Part shown: piece by piece, positions 21,658 to 51,075 of the stretch
Layout: each line of letters starts with the position of its first letter
How positions within the stretch are numbered: the stretch's first letter is position 1
From: an uncultured Alphaproteobacteria bacterium
GTDB lineage: Bacteria; Pseudomonadota; Alphaproteobacteria; Rs-D84
Assembly (NCBI GenBank): GCA_944392815.1
Contig: CALXXY010000003.1
Coordinates: forward strand, 20,096 to 84,095
Direction of reading: 5' to 3'
Length of the DNA: 64,000 nucleotides
The notes under the pieces: model-generated
Database searches by the model: none
What the model was told of the DNA's origin: nothing
Seen by the model: only the letters and a program-made list of their open reading frames with translations
Translations under genes and position numbers: made by a program

Positions 21658-22910
21658 TAATACCAACCGCGCAATTTCATAGCGGCCGCCACACGTTTGA
21701 TTGAATGCATGTATGCGGCTTCGCGCATAGACACATTGTATTCTTCTTTGATTTTATAAATCGCATCAAACGCAGATTTCATCGCGGCGATTTCTTTTTG
21801 TTCCACTTCGGATTCAGGCCAATAATACCCATACCGGTTTTGCACCCATTCGAAATATGACACAGTCACACCGCCGGCGTTTGCCAAAATATCCGGAACA
21901 ACCGTCACACCGTTTTTCAGCAAAATTTCTTCGCCGTCCAGTGTTGTCGGGCCGTTGGCGCCTTCGACCACCAGTTTTGTTTTAATCAATGGCGCAGTAT
22001 CATCATTGATTGTATTTTCCATCGCACACGGCGACAACACATCAACGTCCAGCCCCCAGAATTCTTCGGCACTGATTTCTGTCGCACCTGGGAATCCCTG
22101 GATATTGCCTTTGTGTTGCGCCTTGTATTCCATTAACGCATCGATATCCAACCCGCCTTCGTTATACAGCGTCACATTCCATTCGGCAATCGCAACAATT
22201 TTTGCGCCCATATCATGCGCACATTTCGCGGTAAAACTGCCGACATTGCCAAATCCCTGAACAGCAATACGCGCACCACGAATGTCTTTGCCTTGCTTTT
22301 TCAACGCTTCGCCCATGATAATGGAAATCCCCAGGCCTGTTGCCTTGCCACGACCCAAAGATCCCGCTAATTCAACGGGTTTGCCTGTAAATGTACCAAA
22401 CGCAGATTCACCAGATAATTTGATATATTCGTCCGTCATCCACGCCATAATCTGGGCGTTGGTATTAACATCAGGGGCGGGCACATCGCGCTTTTCACCC
22501 AAAATAGGATAGATCGCATCAACATATCCACGACACAAACGTTCCAATTCACCGGCGGACAATTCTTTTGGATTAACGATAACGCCACCTTTGCCGCCGC
22601 CATACGGAATGCCGGTCACAGAACATTTAAATGTCATCCAAATGGACAGGGCAGCAACCTCGTCCCGGGTCACATTTTGATGGAATCGAATTCCACCCTT
22701 GGACGGGCCCACAGCGGTATTATGCTGGGCACGGAACCCAGTAAACACGCGCACAGAACCATCGTCCATTTTAACAGGAATCGACACTTCGACCATACGT
22801 TGCGGATATTTTAAAATTTCATAAACGTCCGCCGGCATGCCCAATTTTTCACACGCGACACGCACACGCTGCTGTGCAGCAATTAACGGATTTAAATTTT
22901 CATTTGCCAT
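21657..22910 (-). CDS. gdhA: Glutamate dehydrogenase (Glu/Leu/Phe/Val dehydrogenase family, about 417 aa)
   Basis: GPSKGGIRFH catalytic lysine motif and Rossmann GFGNVG. Confidence 0.9.
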   Translation of the reverse strand: MANENLNPLIAAQQRVRVACEKLGMPADVYEILKYPQRMVEVSIPVKMDDGSVRVFTGFRAQHNTAVGPSKGGIRFHQNVTRDEVAALSIWMTFKCSVTGIPYGGGKGGVIVNPKELSAGELERLCRGYVDAIYPILGEKRDVPAPDVNTNAQIMAWMTDEYIKLSGESAFGTFTGKPVELAGSLGRGKATGLGISIIMGEALKKQGKDIRGARIAVQGFGNVGSFTAKCAHDMGAKIVAIAEWNVTLYNEGGLDIDALMEYKAQHKGNIQGFPGATEISAEEFWGLDVDVLSPCAMENTINDDTAPLIKTKLVVEGANGPTTLDGEEILLKNGVTVVPDILANAGGVTVSYFEWVQNRYGYYWPESEVEQKEIAAMKSAFDAIYKIKEEYNVSMREAAYMHSIKRVAAAMKLRGWY

Positions 22911-22989
22911 AACTTTTCCCCTTTATTGGTTTGCATACAGCAATGAAAAATCCTAGAACCATAGTATAAAAAAATCAATCACAAAATCA

Positions 22990-24204
22990 TTACCGCCGGT
23001 TTACAGCACGCAAAATTGGATTCAGCATTACAACCAATACAAATGCCAACGCAAAAAACAAAATAATTGTTGGAACGATACCGAAACTATCCAGTATTGG
23101 CTTTAACAAAATCATTATTACGCCAGACACCCCACTTTTTATCATAGAACCAATTGAAATAACCGTGCCACGTTCATGCGATTCCGTGCGTTCATGAATA
23201 AAACCATTAAACACTAATTTTACCAACGCCTGGACGGCCGGCACAATCGCCATAATCACACACAACACATAAACAATTGGCATATTACCCGCGGCCCAAA
23301 TTGCGCCCAACGCTGCCCCAAAACCAGCAAAAATCCATATTACTGACAACCACAGGGTTTTATTATTGCCCAACCGTTCAATTGATTTATACGCAAATTT
23401 ATAACACAACATGCGCGCCACATTGTTTATCCCCAGAATCACACCAAACAACGCCACCGGCACCAACGCCGCAACCATAACGGGCTGCATCAACCACAGC
23501 ACAATTGTAGCAAATGTCCCATACAATGCCGAATACAGCATCAGTTTTGGCAACTCTGGGTGCCGGGCCGTCATACTAACAATTTTCAAACAATCCCGCA
23601 GCGGGCTGGATTCTGGGGCAACCTTGCGTTTTACTTCTGTTATTTCTGGGATAAAGAACAGTATTAAAAACATAATCAATGCCGCCATAGCATTTACCGC
23701 CAAAACTAAATTTTGACTGATTGCGAATAACGCGCCACCAATCAAAGTTCCAACCATTGTCCCAGCTGTGCCAATCGTATTAACTGAACCATTTTCGCGC
23801 AAATACGTCTTTTCTGCACCATCGCGTTTCAGCAAATCATATATGTATGCTTCTTTGGTTCCGCTGAACAGCGCAGTTGCCACCCCCAATCCGGACTCGC
23901 ACAACAGCACCGCCCAAAAACCAGTTCCAAACAATAATATTGAAAAAGACAAAAACGTCGCAAGCGCGCCCAAAATCAATATTTTCCGCCGCGAAAAAAC
24001 ATCTGCCAAATACCCACTGGGGATTTCAAACAAAAACGCGACAATGCGAAATATTCCCTGAATCATAAAAAAATCGCCCAATCCGACCCCTTTGTTTTGA
24101 TAAATCAAAACGATAACAGGCAATATTGGAACAAACAGATGGAAAAATTCGGCAACCTTCAAAATCCATAACGCGGTTTTCGTTTCCCGCGACAACATAG
24201 ACAT
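22990..24204 (-). CDS. MFS-type transporter
   Basis: 12 predicted TM helices and an MFS-like loop motif (DVFSRRKILILG). Confidence 0.75.
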   Translation of the reverse strand: MSMLSRETKTALWILKVAEFFHLFVPILPVIVLIYQNKGVGLGDFFMIQGIFRIVAFLFEIPSGYLADVFSRRKILILGALATFLSFSILLFGTGFWAVLLCESGLGVATALFSGTKEAYIYDLLKRDGAEKTYLRENGSVNTIGTAGTMVGTLIGGALFAISQNLVLAVNAMAALIMFLILFFIPEITEVKRKVAPESSPLRDCLKIVSMTARHPELPKLMLYSALYGTFATIVLWLMQPVMVAALVPVALFGVILGINNVARMLCYKFAYKSIERLGNNKTLWLSVIWIFAGFGAALGAIWAAGNMPIVYVLCVIMAIVPAVQALVKLVFNGFIHERTESHERGTVISIGSMIKSGVSGVIMILLKPILDSFGIVPTIILFFALAFVLVVMLNPILRAVNRR

Positions 24205-24225
24205 TTTGTGGTCTTTTTATTTTTA

Positions 24226-24410
24226 TTGGTGCGCGACGCGAGGATACCCGACTCACACCAACCCAAACGTATTTCTGGTGCGGGCGAAGGGAATCCGAAC
24301 GATTAAGCACCCGACGCGCGCCGTTATTAGGCGCAAGTCGTTGGTGCGCGACGCGAGGATACCCGACTCACATCAGCCCAAATAAATCTCTGGTGCGGGC
24401 GAAGGGAATC
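24226..24410. repeat. Imperfect tandem duplication (about 115-bp period) carrying a 20-nt copy of the tRNA-Gly 3' end
   Basis: ttggtgcgcgacgcgaggatacccgactcaca (32/32 identical) ... tggtgcgggcgaagggaatc (20/20) occurs at 24226-24295 and again at 24341-24410. The second copy runs into the real tRNA. Confidence 0.8.
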
Positions 24411-24464
24411 GAACCCTCGTCTTCAGCTTGGGAAGCTGACGTGCTACCATTATACCACGCCCGC
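24391..24464 (-). tRNA. tRNA-Gly (anticodon CCC)
   Basis: Reverse complement GCGGGCGTGGTATAATGGTAGCACGTCAGCTTCCCAAGCTGAAGACGAGGGTTCGATTCCCTTCGCCCGCACCA, 74 nt with a clean cloverleaf. Confidence 0.85.
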
Positions 24465-24514
24465 GCACTGCGTGATTCTATACCACGCACAAAAAAATGT
24501 CCAGTTTTTATTTT

Positions 24515-25153
24515 TTATCTGCTTTGCGAATATACATTTATTGGACGCCTGTCCCAACTCGCATTTTCTTTGACAACACGTGCAGGGTTCCCAGCAATAA
24601 CACAATTTGGTTTGTCAAATGTTCCGCTTACCACCGCACCAGTGCCAATAATGCACCCATCTGCAATTTTTGTATTTTTGCATATTGTGGCACCATAACC
24701 AACCCAGACATGATTTCCAATTGTCACATATTTGCCAAAATTTGTCACATTACCCTGCATATCTGTAATCGTATGCGTATCACTGGCCCAAATAATAATT
24801 TTTTCTGAAAACTGACAATCTTCGCCTATGGATATATTGACATTATCTTCGCGCACACGAATATCAGCAGAAACAAACGTAGTTCCAGCCCCAACAGATA
24901 AAGAACAATTATTGCAATCGCCAGCCCCAAACCCCAGGTGTACCGCCAATCCCCCACCCACAGAATCGATACGTACACGGTTATTATCACCATAAATGCT
25001 CAATTTTGGTACAGAATGTTTCCCAACCACAACATCGTTGCCAACACCATGAATTCCGCGATAATTTTTAATACTATAACTGATAATCTTTATGCCGAAC
25101 ACATATATATGAACACGTCCAGAATCACTAATCGTCTTTTTTATAATGCGCAT
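24515..25153 (-). CDS. Hexapeptide-repeat (left-handed beta-helix) acetyltransferase
   Basis: Repeated [LIV]G.N..[IV] hexapeptides (IGNHVWVGYGATICKNTKIADGCIIGTGAVV). Confidence 0.75.
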   Translation of the reverse strand: MRIIKKTISDSGRVHIYVFGIKIISYSIKNYRGIHGVGNDVVVGKHSVPKLSIYGDNNRVRIDSVGGGLAVHLGFGAGDCNNCSLSVGAGTTFVSADIRVREDNVNISIGEDCQFSEKIIIWASDTHTITDMQGNVTNFGKYVTIGNHVWVGYGATICKNTKIADGCIIGTGAVVSGTFDKPNCVIAGNPARVVKENASWDRRPINVYSQSR

Positions 25154-25165
25154 ATCCCCCCCCCA

Positions 25166-25381
25166 TTATCGTTGCTTTGCATTTAATTCGCGCTGTAATT
25201 TTTCAAATTGTGCAGGTGCGGCCCGCAACAGTTTTCTGTTTGGATTGCTGCGCGCCATAGATTTACGCAATGCCGCCAATTTTCCCAAAATCGTAAACGC
25301 CCCGCATGATTTCGCACAATTTTCCGCCGATGAAATCATCGCCAACAATTGATTCCAATCTAATTCGCGTTTTGCGTCCAT
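25166..25381 (-). CDS. Small hypothetical protein
   Basis: 71-aa ORF between the acetyltransferase and the LysM protein. Coding status uncertain. Confidence 0.25.
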   Translation of the reverse strand: MDAKRELDWNQLLAMISSAENCAKSCGAFTILGKLAALRKSMARSNPNRKLLRAAPAQFEKLQRELNAKQR

Positions 25382-26535
25382 TATTTTCCTGTACCACCAG
25401 TTGGAATTTGTAAATTTTGATTTGGGAAAATCAAATTTGGATTTTCGATATTATTACGTTCGGCGATTATACTGAACAACACGCCACGACGCAGGAAATT
25501 GCGCGCAATAATCCACAAACAATCACCACGACGCACAGTATAATACGTATCGTCATCACCGGTCATTTCCGGCATAGTAAATTTATGATTTACTTCGGCA
25601 ATAGTGCGCCCATCGCCATCATGCAAACGCACAGTCAATTTATATTCCTGGCCAGATTTTAAATCGCCAACGTCCGCACCCAATCCAAAATGTTTGTAAT
25701 CAGAAACGCGTGCAAACCCCAGATATTTATCGTCCAACGACAACGACACACGCAACCGTGGCAATGAATCACCCGTCACCACAATACGCCCAGTATCCAG
25801 ATAGTCAATTTTGGACACAACCAAATCGCCATCAACCAACATAGTTGGTGCCTGCAACAAAGTGCTGCCATCATCTGTCATCAATAACGATACAGAATTT
25901 TGATATCCACGTTCAGAAATATACACAAACACATTTTCATCAGATTTCACATTTCCACGAATGCCAATCAATGAAATTGTATAGTTTCCTGCCTCAAACG
26001 CACGGGCGGGCGAATACACAAACTCGCCATTTTTGTCTGTGCGTTCTGTTGCAACAATTTCGCCATTTATAACAATGGAAACACTGTCATCTGCGACCCA
26101 ACGTCCCGCGACAACAACTGTACCCTGGGGTTCAATACGCACAATATCAAACGTCGGCACGCTGACCTGTTCAAACGTTTCGGCCACAATACGTGTTGTT
26201 GGTTCTGCGACCGGTGGCACAACGACGACAGTATCACTTGGGCGATGAAAAAACGCCACCCATACCGCCACCAACACAACAAACACAGCACACAGAATAG
26301 GGAACCAATACGCAGCCACCCCACCACGACGCGTTTCTTTTTTCTGACCCGTCGGATTTTTATCTGCATCATGTGTCGGATTTGGACGGGCAAAAATATT
26401 CAGCGTTTTCAAAAAACGCCGCGCAAAAGTACGTCTGTTTTCCATCCAATCATTTTGCTGCGCAATTGCACTGTCAATCAAATCGTCCGTTGAACGTTTT
26501 GTTTTTCCCATACTAGATTTATTGCTGGCGACCAT
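25381..26535 (-). CDS. Membrane-anchored protein with C-terminal LysM domain
   Basis: TM helix (WFPILCAVFVVLVAVWVAFF). C-terminal YTVRRGDCLWIIARNFL...NIENPNLIFPNQNLQIP matches the LysM consensus. Confidence 0.7.
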   Translation of the reverse strand: MVASNKSSMGKTKRSTDDLIDSAIAQQNDWMENRRTFARRFLKTLNIFARPNPTHDADKNPTGQKKETRRGGVAAYWFPILCAVFVVLVAVWVAFFHRPSDTVVVVPPVAEPTTRIVAETFEQVSVPTFDIVRIEPQGTVVVAGRWVADDSVSIVINGEIVATERTDKNGEFVYSPARAFEAGNYTISLIGIRGNVKSDENVFVYISERGYQNSVSLLMTDDGSTLLQAPTMLVDGDLVVSKIDYLDTGRIVVTGDSLPRLRVSLSLDDKYLGFARVSDYKHFGLGADVGDLKSGQEYKLTVRLHDGDGRTIAEVNHKFTMPEMTGDDDTYYTVRRGDCLWIIARNFLRRGVLFSIIAERNNIENPNLIFPNQNLQIPTGGTGK

Positions 26536-47001: not shown

Positions 47002-47122
47002 GCGCACCCCCAACGAATAAAAAAATTCAACTCGCCACACTACGTTAAAACTTCGTGTGGCACTCCTTTGCGTTAAACGTTCCGCTTCGGCTTGCCACCC
47101 GAAGCGTCACGGACGCAAAGGG

Positions 47123-47142
47123 TGGTCGGGGCGACAGGAATC
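47123..47142. repeat. 20-nt duplicate of the tRNA-Pro 3' end (tggtcggggcgacaggaatc), about 200 bp downstream of the gene
   Basis: Identical to 47320-47339. Homology stops exactly where the T-loop sequence begins. Confidence 0.8.
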
Positions 47143-47319
47143 CCTCGCACGGTGCCTGGGCACCGGCTGCGGGGCATTCGTGACGATTTGGCCACACTAC
47201 GTTTGCCAAATCTACTCATTGTCGAACCACGGCATGCATTGCATGCAACGCCGATTTCGTTATACCCACAAACATGAATAAAAATAACATCTCTCTGCGA
47301 TTGATATTATTTTTATTCA

Positions 47320-47396
47320 TGGTCGGGGCGACAGGAATCGAACCTGCGACCCCTTGCACCCCATGCAAGTACTCTACCAGGCTGAGCTACGCCCCG
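47320..47396 (-). tRNA. tRNA-Pro (anticodon GGG)
   Basis: Reverse complement CGGGGCGTAGCTCAGCCTGGTAGAGTACTTGCATGGGGTGCAAGGGGTCGCAGGTTCGATTCCTGTCGCCCCGACCA, 77 nt. Confidence 0.85.
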
Positions 47397-47517
47397 ACGT
47401 ACGCATATTTATACAATTCCCACGCAGTAAAAGCAAGTATATTTTATGCTTGCACGAATCGGAAAAAAGTTATTAGTATTCGGCATATCAATATTAATAA
47501 CACCAGGGAGTAAATCC

Positions 47518-47895
47518 GTGATAGCAGGTATTGGAATTGATTTGGTCGAATGCGACAGATTTCTGGATTGGTCTGCATTCAAAAAACAGCGTATATTTAC
47601 AAAAAAAGAATTGGAATATGCCGACAATGACAATGCCAATTCTGAAAAACATCTGGCAAATTTCTGGGCCGCGCGCGAGGCATGCTTAAAAGCACTCGGC
47701 ACAGGTTTCGGTGACGACATCGGATTTTCAGACGTATCGGTCACCCACAACGACGCGGGTCGGCCAGAATTATTAATAACCGGCGGGGCCAAGGCCGCGT
47801 TAAAGGAATTAGCCGGCCCCAACGCGTCAGTATTTTTGTCCATCACTGACCAGGAGGATTATTCCGCCGCGATGGTTGTAATTGAACGCCAATAA
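47518..47895 (+). CDS. acpS: Holo-ACP synthase (4'-phosphopantetheinyl transferase)
   Basis: GTG start VIAGIGIDLVE. AcpS motifs (GIDL, W..KEA..KA.G). Confidence 0.8.
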   Translation: MIAGIGIDLVECDRFLDWSAFKKQRIFTKKELEYADNDNANSEKHLANFWAAREACLKALGTGFGDDIGFSDVSVTHNDAGRPELLITGGAKAALKELAGPNASVFLSITDQEDYSAAMVVIERQ

Positions 47896-47923
47896 AAAAT
47901 CCGCCACCCGGCGGATTTTTATT
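47895..47923 (+). terminator. Terminator after acpS
   Basis: aaaaaatccgccacccggcggattttta. Confidence 0.75.
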
Positions 47924-48272
47924 ATGGCTGATATCTGCAATCCTGATCATATACAAACGTGCCACTGGGTTCAATAAACGGGTCATTGGATTGCGCATAG
48001 CAGGCGGCAATGCCGTTTATGCCCGTTCTGGAATGAACCACAACAAATGGATTCCCAACAATCACAGGCACAGTCCCCGGAATTTCGAATCCGATCTCGC
48101 CATTAACCCCGGCACCCAGGCAACAACTGATTGTCGTGCCTTCGTGCCCAACCCTCACACTATATCCGGCATATCCGGACGTGTTGGGTATTGCGGCAAC
48201 AGTTTCTGTAAAGTTTCCATTTGTACCGCATTTATATATTGTGCCACACGGTTCGGGGAATGGGATCGCCAC
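47922..48272 (-). CDS. Small Cys/Gly/Thr-rich hypothetical protein (116 aa, GTG start); homolog of the 27847-28032 product
   Basis: C-terminal SGTFVYDQDCRYQP vs TGTYEFEQPCAME in the other ORF. Cys spacing is conserved. Confidence 0.4.
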   Translation of the reverse strand: MAIPFPEPCGTIYKCGTNGNFTETVAAIPNTSGYAGYSVRVGHEGTTISCCLGAGVNGEIGFEIPGTVPVIVGNPFVVVHSRTGINGIAACYAQSNDPFIEPSGTFVYDQDCRYQP

Positions 48273-48287
48273 CGCCCCATGTGATAT

Positions 48288-48706
48288 GTCGCGTTGGGGC
48301 AGTGGTATACGAACGGTGAAATATCAGAATGCCCACCGCCGACCGGGCCCCGCGCAAACATAGTTTGCGTGGGTGGTTCCAGGGCGGGGGGGGGGGTGAC
48401 GGTCGTCAGACCGTCGGGGGGTGGGGCACAATGACCACCCCGTCGCGCAAAGCGTGGCGATCCAGTAAATAAAAAAGTACTGCGGGCGAACGCCCGCAGA
48501 CATATTGCACTGGATTGCCACAGTCGTACGCCAACGTTTTCAACGTTGATCGTACTCCTTCGCAATGACAGGAGCAGAGTGGACATTATCTACACTCTAT
48601 ACTCTACACTCTTCACTCTATTATTCCCGCACCAGCGGGAATAATATAACTCTCCACTCTATTATTGTCACGCTGTGCGTGACAATAATATCACTCTGCG
48701 CGGGAA
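48288..48706 (+). repeat. Repeat element copy B: 114-nt structured core plus longer array of hairpin modules
   Basis: Core at 48328-48441. Hairpins include ctgcgggcg aa cgcccgcag, tattattcccgc acca gcgggaataata and tattattgtcacgc tgtg cgtgacaataata, with ACTCT-type short repeats between. Ends at the stop codon of the 788-aa gene. Confidence 0.85.
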
Positions 48707-48708
48707 AT

Positions 48709-51075
48709 TTATATCAATGGCGGGAAACAATCGCCCCCTGATTGTGGGCAACAATTAAATCCCATGTCGCCCATATCTGTATAAATCTCGCCTGGGCAAC
48801 AGCCATTCACATCGGGCGCACTGCCGTCTGGACACGCCGGCAAATTTGATGGAACTTCTTCCTGCCACACAACGGACGTCACCGATTGCGGCACGTATTC
48901 ATCATTGGTCGCAACTGCGCCACCGCCAACATTCGTGGTCGCACCCGCCGTCACCACAGACGGCCCAGTCGTATCCACAGCCACCATATTTTCATTACGC
49001 AACGTTTCCGTATCGTAATTCGAATCGGCAACGAACATATTTTCATTCTGTGATACGTTGTACGCGGGCTTGCTGGCCAAAATATCCTCTTCGGATTCCA
49101 CAACAACTGATTCGGGTTCGCTGACCGGCACAGGCGGTGTCACATTCACCGATTCGATAACAACATCAGCGTCCTGGACAGGTTGCGGTTCCAACACAAC
49201 CGTTTCCGGTTCGGGCTGCGCCACAGGTTCCGGTTCACTGACCGGCACAGGCACAGGTTCTGGTTCGGGCTGTGCCACAGGTTCCGGCTCGTCTACAACG
49301 GGCGCCGGCACTTCGACAACAGCGGGCTCGACCACCGGGGCGGGCGTTTCAATTTCAGGTATAAACGGACTGTCGGCCGCATCACCGCTTTCATCAGTCG
49401 CGACATCAGCCACCTGGGCTGTTGGCACCGTTGTGGTTAAATCGGGCACCTGGTCATTGGTATTACGCTGATACAGCCACAATGTAAATATCGACAACCC
49501 GATCAATAATATCAACAACAGATAATACACAAACGTCGGCTTGCGCGGGGCAGGATTTGTCGGCGCAGCGGTCCCCGTTATTGGCGACACAGGGCGGGGT
49601 GCATTCGCACCGGCGGGTGCATTTACCGCCGGTGACACCGGTCGCGCCGCGGCACTGGCCGCTGGGGCGGGTGTCGGCATCGGATTTTGCATTCCCGCAT
49701 TATTCCCGGGCGCCGCCACACTATCGTCCGCAACCGGCGGCACCGGGGCGGGACGTACAGGTTGTGCGGGTTGAACTGGCTGTACAGGTTCAGTCGTATT
49801 CGCCCCCATTAATTCAGAATCCAATTGAACATTTGAATCCACATCATTCGGCTGGGGAATATCAACCGACGTAATCGTATCCAACACAGGCGCAGATTGT
49901 GGCACAGTGGGCGCAACATCGTCGTTCGTCACAGGCGTCACATTTATTGGTGCACTATCCCCAACCGGGGCGGGCGCCGCCGCGGGTTCAGATTGCGTTG
50001 GTGGCGTAAACGACAACGGTTTTTCATCAATCACACTGTCATACAAATCATCAGTCGACTGACCAGAATTTTCCACAGGACTGGACACACCGAATTCAAT
50101 CGGTTTAAACGCGATATCTTCGTCCATTATATCTGGATTTTTGTCGAACAAAGGTTGTACTTCGTCATTTTTCATTGTTTCGTCGGCCATATTTTCCGCC
50201 TTTGGTTCTGCTGTATTAAATTCAATTTCTTTGTCATATGTTATATCAGCGACGTCATTGTCATCATCAACATCGTCCACGTCATCATCATACGAAATAT
50301 TATACGACGTCACCACAGGTGCGTCCACAGATTCCGCCGGCATAACAACATTTTTCGCCGGCGCCACATTTGCGACCATGGTCGCGTCACTGGTTGCGGG
50401 GCGGGCCAAAATCTCGCGCGCGGCGGCGGCATCTTCATCAGCCACTATCAAACGCCGTTGTGCATTGGATAAACGTTTTTTCGCGCGACGCAATTTTTCA
50501 TTTGTCGCATCAATTTGTGCATCTGTCCGTAAAATTTTCGACGCAGATTGTTTTGTCGGCTCGCGCCCAACTTTCTTTTTTTGCTGTGATAACTGTGCCC
50601 GCAAAGAACGCAATTTGACCTGTAATTCATCGATAGTTTCACGCGCACGGGTAATGGTTTCGCGCGCCCGGTCAGCATTCGATTCCGCCATAGCCAACCG
50701 TTCAGCCGCAGCGCGCCGGACTGAATCCTCGCGAAAATGGGTTAATGCAACCAGCGCATCGGACAAATCAGCCCCATTTTCATACGCACGAATTAAATCG
50801 TCGTATTCCGACAGCCCGCTGTATTCAATATCCAACTTTTGATATTTATTATTTTTCTTTGGCCGCACAGTTTCCAAATCAACCCCATAATCATTGGCCA
50901 AAATATCGTCCCATTTGCGATCACCCACGGGATTAATCACCAACAACGCGTTAGGTTTGCGATTATCAACGGTATTATCCAACACGAACACCAATTTACC
51001 GTCCGCGTCATAATACGCCCGCAGCGCATTTCCGCCGATATTATATTCCCTGAATGTTAAAACAGAATTATCCAT
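48709..51075 (-). CDS. Large Pro/Glu/Val-rich membrane protein (unknown function)
   Basis: 788 aa: N-terminal globular and coiled-coil region, acidic stretch, one TM helix (FVYYLLLILLIGLSIFTLWLY), PEPV-type repeats, and a C-terminal Cys cluster (NGCCPGEIY...FNCCPQSGGDC). Confidence 0.5.
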   Translation of the reverse strand: MDNSVLTFREYNIGGNALRAYYDADGKLVFVLDNTVDNRKPNALLVINPVGDRKWDDILANDYGVDLETVRPKKNNKYQKLDIEYSGLSEYDDLIRAYENGADLSDALVALTHFREDSVRRAAAERLAMAESNADRARETITRARETIDELQVKLRSLRAQLSQQKKKVGREPTKQSASKILRTDAQIDATNEKLRRAKKRLSNAQRRLIVADEDAAAAREILARPATSDATMVANVAPAKNVVMPAESVDAPVVTSYNISYDDDVDDVDDDNDVADITYDKEIEFNTAEPKAENMADETMKNDEVQPLFDKNPDIMDEDIAFKPIEFGVSSPVENSGQSTDDLYDSVIDEKPLSFTPPTQSEPAAAPAPVGDSAPINVTPVTNDDVAPTVPQSAPVLDTITSVDIPQPNDVDSNVQLDSELMGANTTEPVQPVQPAQPVRPAPVPPVADDSVAAPGNNAGMQNPMPTPAPAASAAARPVSPAVNAPAGANAPRPVSPITGTAAPTNPAPRKPTFVYYLLLILLIGLSIFTLWLYQRNTNDQVPDLTTTVPTAQVADVATDESGDAADSPFIPEIETPAPVVEPAVVEVPAPVVDEPEPVAQPEPEPVPVPVSEPEPVAQPEPETVVLEPQPVQDADVVIESVNVTPPVPVSEPESVVVESEEDILASKPAYNVSQNENMFVADSNYDTETLRNENMVAVDTTGPSVVTAGATTNVGGGAVATNDEYVPQSVTSVVWQEEVPSNLPACPDGSAPDVNGCCPGEIYTDMGDMGFNCCPQSGGDCFPPLI

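Follow-up and report, generated by a model that had tools for sequence, protein, structure and literature searches.

The tRNA-Gly(CCC) gene of this alphaproteobacterium is followed by a partial second copy of its own 3′ end, and we put the chances at about even that this distal sequence is what remains of another tRNA-Gly copy and its trailer, reshaped by unequal recombination and gene conversion. In the 64,000-nucleotide stretch of DNA analyzed here (the window), the intact gene, with its CCA encoded, lies on the minus strand at 24391 to 24464 (ARAGORN; Rfam RF00005, 67.6 bits). A repeat search detected a 70-nt direct repeat 3′ of the gene, with 64 of 70 positions identical (91%) and a period of 115 nt. 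The proximal copy (24341 to 24410) is composed of tRNA positions 57 to 76 (24391 to 24410), an 18-nt linker of type a (24373 to 24390), and a 32-nt block (24341 to 24372). The distal copy (24226 to 24295) has the same layout, with a 20-nt partial copy of the tRNA 3′ end (24276 to 24295), an 18-nt linker of type b (24258 to 24275), and the 32-nt block (24226 to 24257). Separating the two is a unique 45-nt spacer, designated S, that forms a GC-rich hairpin (24296 to 24340; all of these features are on the minus strand). One repeat unit therefore consists of tRNA positions 57 to 76, the 18-nt linker, the 32-nt block, and the 45-nt spacer, and the trailer is a head-to-tail array of 1.6 units in which the repeat runs 50 nt past the CCA. 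The 32-nt block is GC-rich and ends in CGCACCAA, reading 3′-ward on the minus strand to 24341. Tandem Repeats Finder gave no report for the trailer, given the unique spacer (24296 to 24340) and an array of just 1.6 units.

The initial annotation, made from the sequence alone, had noted that the tRNA 3′ end and the 32-nt block occur twice, 115 bp apart. This observation was borne out: both elements belong to the 70-nt repeat, and the two-copy structure was recovered in at least 13 independent assemblies, one of them an NCBI MAG. A search for additional copies found exactly two exact matches in the window for the 20-nt tRNA end and exactly two for the 32-nt block, and for neither element did any of 100 shuffles contain two matches. 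However, the T-loop is not the exact limit of identity that had been stated. Past one extra G (24296), homology resumes for GTTC (24297 to 24300 versus 24411 to 24414 of the gene), and the distal copy thereby reaches tRNA position 53. Spacer S thus reads GTTC plus G at its 3′ end, which extends the tRNA T-loop sequence apart from the single additional G. Resemblance of the 32-nt block to a degenerate tRNA 3′ end, as had been suggested, was not upheld by alignment (gapped, P = 0.24; ungapped without the terminal CACCA, P = 0.17), nor was a T-arm-like stem in register (P = 0.06, i.e., 6% of shuffles); the terminal CGCACCA is all that the sequences have in common.

We searched more widely for the parts of the repeat. 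Spacer S had no second copy in the window or in related loci and was absent from viral contigs. Its resemblance to the 5′ part of tRNA-Gly was not significant (P = 0.18; only GTTC matches). The 23-nt core of the block matched exactly in only one of 185,579 species genomes (JADINE010000039.1, "Candidatus Enterousia excrementavium"), which places the window in the chromosome of this uncultured gut bacterium, and was likewise absent from viral contigs. The 32-nt block was not found 3′ of any other tRNA or gene in the window, the related loci, or the species genomes. A dispersed repeat family was discarded, as neither the block core nor the spacer had further copies in the window or related loci, and a plain tandem duplication cannot yield a repeat-spacer-repeat arrangement with a unique spacer. 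Because the spacer lacks significant similarity to the tRNA 5′ part and to the other sequences compared, descent from a full second gene copy rests on analogy and on the 4-nt extension with its one indel. The T-loop breakpoint, which integrases also produce, counts against this reading.

To examine variation within the species, we compared 20 strain contigs retrieved by exact-protein look-ups. At least 13 of them have two copies of the repeat. In two contigs from metagenome assemblies (L008 and L014), a single copy is present and the intergenic region is exactly 115 nt shorter; the copy number of the repeat is therefore polymorphic within the species. The distance from gene to distal copy was 95 nt in every two-copy contig. 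Approximately 16 of approximately 26 variable columns in 1.5 kb sit in the two 18-nt linkers (24258 to 24275 and 24373 to 24390), each of which has eight variable positions, some with three alleles; no other spot is hypervariable. Neither the 32-nt block nor the partial tRNA end, which flank the linker, varied in any strain. Within the window itself, all six differences between the proximal and distal repeats are confined to the linker, for which the chance probability is (18/70)^6, or 3 × 10^-4. The linker variants mostly combine stretches of the two resident types, with a few point changes added, and some strains carry the identical linker type in both copies. Such mosaics and shared types are what gene conversion between the copies would give. 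The restriction of differences to the linker, a point against the second-copy reading, would call for the block to be under constraint or for the copies to descend from two diverged alleles. The same data bear on whether the repeat was made or collapsed by an assembler. Many contigs do break in or beside the repeat; however, the same two-copy structure was obtained across projects and assemblers and in the NCBI MAG, and the copies are told apart by six linker differences, so that exact repeats are at most ~32 nt, under the usual final k-mers. We regard an assembly artifact as extremely improbable.

The whole feature lies within a 2.7-kb tract (22800 to 25520) that was delineated by comparing two strain lineages. 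From ~25520 to ~22800, the lineages are mostly 94 to 100% identical per 100 nt, whereas outside the tract, in PFK/LysM, GDH, and beyond, they differ by 11 to 16%. The tract carries a 71-amino-acid open reading frame (ORF), an acetyltransferase gene, tRNA-Gly, the repeat, and an MFS transporter gene; between the lineages, MFS is 99.8% identical and the acetyltransferase 97.5%. Set against the diverged flanks, this identity indicates a recent interlineage transfer or a gene-specific sweep of 22800 to 25520, and suggests that the tRNA/MFS segment recently moved between lineages via recombination in the flanking core genes. The tract cargo resembles drug-efflux MFS and xenobiotic acetyltransferase families, but only weakly, its scores falling far under the family cutoffs. 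In one strain contig (L003, 2190 to 2681), a PEMT-family methyltransferase gene takes the place of the hexapeptide acetyltransferase gene, and PEMT is also found at the equivalent position in related species (L031 and L034).

The gene order across this region is PFK, LysM protein, 71-amino-acid ORF, hexapeptide acetyltransferase, tRNA-Gly, MFS, GDH, S16, and RimM; the neighbors of tRNA-Gly are thus housekeeping or small accessory genes. The hexapeptide acetyltransferase gene (24515 to 25153, minus strand; Pfam) lies 5′ of the tRNA gene. The MFS transporter gene lies 3′ of it (22990 to 24204, minus strand; Pfam MFS_1, 5e-21), with 21 A-rich nt between the distal repeat and its start codon (24204). 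A consensus scan identified a promoter-like site, TGGACA-17-TAGAAT (24475 to 24503, minus strand; 10 of 12 matches), and a similar TGGACA...TATAGAAT precedes the orthologous tRNA-Gly genes of relatives, making this site the probable promoter of a tRNA-Gly/trailer/MFS transcript. No terminator-like site was detected between tRNA-Gly and MFS (0 in 23900 to 24800), and no separate promoter was seen ahead of MFS. Canonical terminators follow the other tRNA genes of the window, except at the Gly and Pro loci and at genes abutting the next tRNA. Given a promoter-like site before the tRNA and no terminator before MFS, MFS is probably read from the tRNA-Gly promoter through the repeat.

This arrangement, with MFS lacking a preceding terminator or a promoter of its own, is one of the observations that would favor a selected RNA or DNA element, in which linker and block form a functional trailer module (for example, a processing or stabilizing hairpin, or a protein-binding site separating tRNA-Gly from the MFS mRNA) and the duplication is kept for a benefit to expression. 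The invariance of block and partial tRNA end around a variable linker points the same way. Folding gave mixed results. Compared with shuffles, the 186-nt trailer had a more stable predicted fold (z = −2.6; 3 of 200), and two fixed linker differences inside a predicted stem preserve pairing (C-G to U-G and A-U to G-U). However, a stable conserved hairpin was rejected, since single hairpins were no better than shuffles (z = −0.8 to −1.6), linker types a and b have different minimum-energy folds, and rare linker variants disrupt predicted pairs. One-copy alleles occur, the block lies downstream of no other tRNA or gene, and no Rfam family matched the trailer at an E value of ≤10, the tRNA itself being the only match. 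Taking these observations together, we judge selection for such an element to be quite improbable. No credible small ORF like the tpr repeats of Escherichia coli was found in the trailer.

We then compared the orthologous loci of related species, which were located via GDH homologues (83 to 90% identity); MFS orthologues were discarded as anchors, as their synteny is not conserved. The order PFK-LysM-[variable]-GDH-S16-RimM is kept in relatives. Both MFS and the repeat are absent at the orthologous locus in the six related species examined, and relative to all six, tRNA-Gly and its promoter are inverted in the window (24383 to 24504 versus 4779 to 4904 of L029). Owing to this inversion, the 3′ end of tRNA-Gly points toward the variable region in the relatives, where the gene is divergent from GDH and lies ~130 nt upstream of it. 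That region contains nothing, an 84-amino-acid ORF, a 91-amino-acid ORF with PEMT, or a radical-SAM gene, together with zero, one, or two copies of a ~300-nt GC-rich element. The element contains the last 19 nt of tRNA-Gly, and these partial copies lie 3′ of the orthologous tRNA. The tRNA-Gly locus is a gene-turnover hotspot across the genus, and the insertion polymorphism that comparison of related loci was proposed to reveal is real. However, what separates filled from empty forms in relatives is a segment whose boundary is marked by a 34-nt copy of the tRNA terminator, not by a tRNA fragment. In some relatives, an ORF of 81 to 90 amino acids encoding a GIY-YIG nuclease (Pfam, 6.6e-16; L030, 4231 to 4503, minus strand; also L031) sits directly 3′ of a partial tRNA-Gly copy. 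It is present or absent by strain, its unit is flanked by the 34-nt duplicated terminator, and it is placed much like a free-standing homing endonuclease gene.

A second tRNA gene of the window has a comparable appendage. Of the seven tRNA genes present, only Gly and Pro have extra 3′ copies, and both have the T-loop TTCGATT. The tRNA-Pro(GGG) gene (47320 to 47396, minus strand) is followed by an element at 47034 to 47319 (minus strand; identified by sequence comparison) that consists, in order, of a degenerate tRNA-Pro 5′ part ending in GGTTCGA, a 77-nt structured insert, an exact 20-nt copy of the tRNA-Pro 3′ end (47123 to 47142, minus strand), and an 89-nt module, termed Y (47034 to 47122, minus strand). 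The degenerate 5′ part preserves the anticodon-arm motif TTGCATG. Positions 47034 to 47141 are 74% identical to the part of the relatives' tRNA-Gly element that lies past the tRNA fragment (E = 4e-15). Filled and empty forms at this locus differ by 157 nt (47034 to 47190), bounded by a 13-nt repeat, and half of the strain contigs lack those 157 nt. The empty allele still has the upstream part of the element, and the filled form has a perfect 8-bp hairpin across the left junction; therefore, the empty allele is a deletion between the 13-nt repeats and not a site-specific excision.

Strain-specific microrearrangements were also observed at the tRNA-Pro 3′ end (L037, ~2165 to 2185; L041, ~2124 to 2200; L039; L045). 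They include a 10-nt tandem duplication (GCCCCGACCA) in one strain, a 38-nt tandem duplication covering the T-arm and the acceptor end in a strain, and, in other cases, a 4-nt deletion after CCA and a missing last A of CCA. The segment at ~47400 to 48700, between a 788-amino-acid ORF and the ACPS gene, varies in gene content by strain (L037 to L046, 1000 to 1800): variants 5′ of the ACPS/tRNA-Pro pair have a 207-amino-acid ORF, ORFs of 149 and 72 amino acids, a 117-amino-acid ORF, a 78-amino-acid ORF, or none. It is a second variable spot beside a tRNA gene. The 788-amino-acid ORF (48709 to 51075, minus strand) has no Pfam match, and its region is the sole part of the window with raised GC content (0.55).

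The initial annotation had interpreted the tRNA-Gly duplication as an att-like integrase scar. Under this reading, site-specific integration in the T-loop or at the 3′ end of tRNA-Gly restored an intact gene while pushing its former 3′ end aside, the inserted element later decayed until just the 45-nt spacer remained, in the manner of a CIME, and the one-copy alleles are empty or excised sites. Displaced tRNA fragments at tRNA islands start in the T-loop and have the orientation of the gene (Islander, PMC4383910), and the attP core of Ms6 lies in the T-loop (PMC1762012). The tRNA-Gly locus shares with Islander-type islands and CIME-like remnants a partial 3′ copy in direct orientation (20 of 20 nt at 24276 to 24295), a T-loop breakpoint, polymorphism, and accessory genes nearby. 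The existence of both one- and two-copy alleles, the genus-wide turnover with a tRNA gene inverted relative to all relatives, and the hypervariable linker between two invariant blocks, which could mark a crossover region, are further points in favor of integration. What survives of the earlier interpretation is a recombination footprint with polymorphic copies at a hotspot tRNA gene; an integrase and an island do not accompany it. A Pfam search of 37 ORFs in the 64-kb window detected no integrase, recombinase, resolvase, or transposase domain, and neither a tyrosine or serine integrase, a recombinase, or a transposase nor an island was found among the called genes of ~50 related loci. No compositional island was supported, there being no GC anomaly around the tRNA-Gly locus. 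Instead of kilobases between gene and fragment, no strain has more than 95 nt. Unlike at Islander-type islands, identity continues 50 nt beyond the tRNA, and the boundaries of presence/absence alleles lack a common core. In addition, the copies do not bracket the MFS gene, the block and spacer are missing from viral contigs, and in species genomes the block is confined to the tRNA-Gly locus. The one-copy alleles of L008 and L014 fit site-specific and homologous recombination alike. However, presence/absence alleles at the three loci compared are bounded by different, unrelated repeats of 70, 34, and 13 nt, the pattern expected of homologous deletion. We therefore consider an integrase scar unlikely.

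The partial copies in relatives and at tRNA-Pro favor descent from a second tRNA copy and also suggested another possible origin. Each of these partial 3′ copies is preceded by degenerate sequence from the 5′ part of its own tRNA, which ends in GGGTTCG or GGTTCGA; for Gly, this part aligns with the tRNA at P = 0.005. Each copy has a 5′ part, a structured insert of 77 to 95 nt, and then a 3′ part from A58; they are thus downstream copies of the neighboring tRNA, split in the T-loop. Split tRNA-Gly copies were found at loci L030 to L036 and L052. In four of these degenerate copies, an insert of 90 to 95 nt was mapped between T-loop positions 57 and 58 (L030, L031, and L034, 4608 to 4710; L036, 4605 to 4706). 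A metagenome scan with a 20-mer of this type 1 insert, which is invariant in all three sequences, recovered a 90-nt insert in a tRNA-His(GTG) gene (L048, ~228 to 398; JGI contig Ga0131853_10401257). There, the insert lies between G57 and A58 and the exons are otherwise perfect; ARAGORN misses the gene until the insert is removed and then calls tRNA-His. The type 1 insert forms two hairpins, in which compensatory changes occur, and the two tRNA-Gly species compared share an identical 26-nt core. A covariance model (R1) scored known insert copies at 115 to 125 bits and had no match in the window. No type 1 insert was found in public phage, plasmid, or viral sets, and it corresponds to no Rfam family. 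A second insert type, not detected by the type 1 model, is shared by the tRNA-Pro copy and the tRNA-Gly remnant of another species (73% over 62 nt, E = 3e-6). The conserved insert may be a novel intervening sequence of tRNA genes or a mobile element that targets them; the tRNA-His case would then represent either a bacterial tRNA intron of a new kind or a new mobile element of this sort.

The distal tRNA-Gly copy in the window resembles the split elements in being a downstream partial 3′ copy that starts at the T-loop, and it has its extra G exactly where they have the insert. It could, then, be the footprint of an undescribed class of structured, ~77- to 95-nt T-loop intervening elements in alphaproteobacterial tRNA genes. 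However, the copy has neither an insert of ~77 to 95 nt nor a Y module, the extra G alone occupying the insert position, and we consider this derivation doubtful.

The closest known structure to the tRNA-Gly repeat is the tyrT/tyrV-rttR trailer of E. coli. Classically, the tyrT-tyrV array is attributed to unequal recombination between tandemly arranged tRNA genes, with subsequent decay. In the E. coli K-12 genome (NC_000913), we found the final 19 nt of tRNA-Tyr six times: twice within the tRNA genes and four times outside them, once in the spacer and three times at the head of 178-nt tandem units. The 203-nt stretches at 178-nt spacing are 95% identical, and the partial tRNA-Tyr copies all begin at A58 of the T-loop. 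The tyrT-tyrV trailer (rttR/RtT RNA, tpr) and the tRNA-Gly trailer both consist of head-to-tail units directly after the tRNA gene. In both, units open with the last 19 to 20 nt of the tRNA, from T-loop to CCA (starting at A58 in E. coli and at G57/A58 here), the copy in the first unit is the tRNA's own end, the array ends truncated, and no integrase is present. The two differ in unit length (115 nt at tRNA-Gly versus 178 nt in E. coli) and in number of units (1.6 versus 3.1), and they have no sequence similarity. Unlike tyrT-tyrV, the tRNA-Gly trailer has no tpr-like small ORF, has an apparently cotranscribed MFS gene downstream, and is polymorphic in copy number within the species. By this comparison, the tRNA-Gly trailer appears to be an analogue of the tyrT/rttR repeats and, judged against Rfam, not a member of a described RNA family.

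These comparisons are compatible with the following scheme for descent from a second tRNA-Gly copy. The distal 70 nt would be a 5′-truncated pseudocopy of the 3′ part of the tRNA and its trailer, in which duplication or recombination joined the T-loop breakpoint to foreign or decayed sequence, the present spacer. Homologous recombination between the two 70-nt copies would drive current evolution, with unequal exchange or slipped deletion generating one-copy alleles and gene conversion shuffling the two linker types. Recombination in the core genes on either side may carry the whole tRNA/MFS segment from one lineage to another. Transcription of the array would probably start at the tRNA promoter, with the array separating tRNA-Gly from the MFS mRNA, and no integrase would be acting on it now.

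Taken alone, the tRNA-Gly repeat is a small, noncoding by-product of recombination at a tRNA gene, and it serves as a caution that a partial tRNA 3′ copy is insufficient proof of an integrase-borne island. The locus marks the exchange of accessory genes, an efflux-like MFS transporter and an acetyltransferase, between diverged lineages of a gut alphaproteobacterium with a reduced genome. The T-loop-split copies and the interrupted tRNA-His gene may matter more than the repeat itself. The partial tRNA copies of this genus start at the same T-loop position as the E. coli tyrT repeats; if confirmed, the split copies could explain the origin of trailer repeats, and the conserved inserts might reveal a new kind of bacterial tRNA gene interruption.
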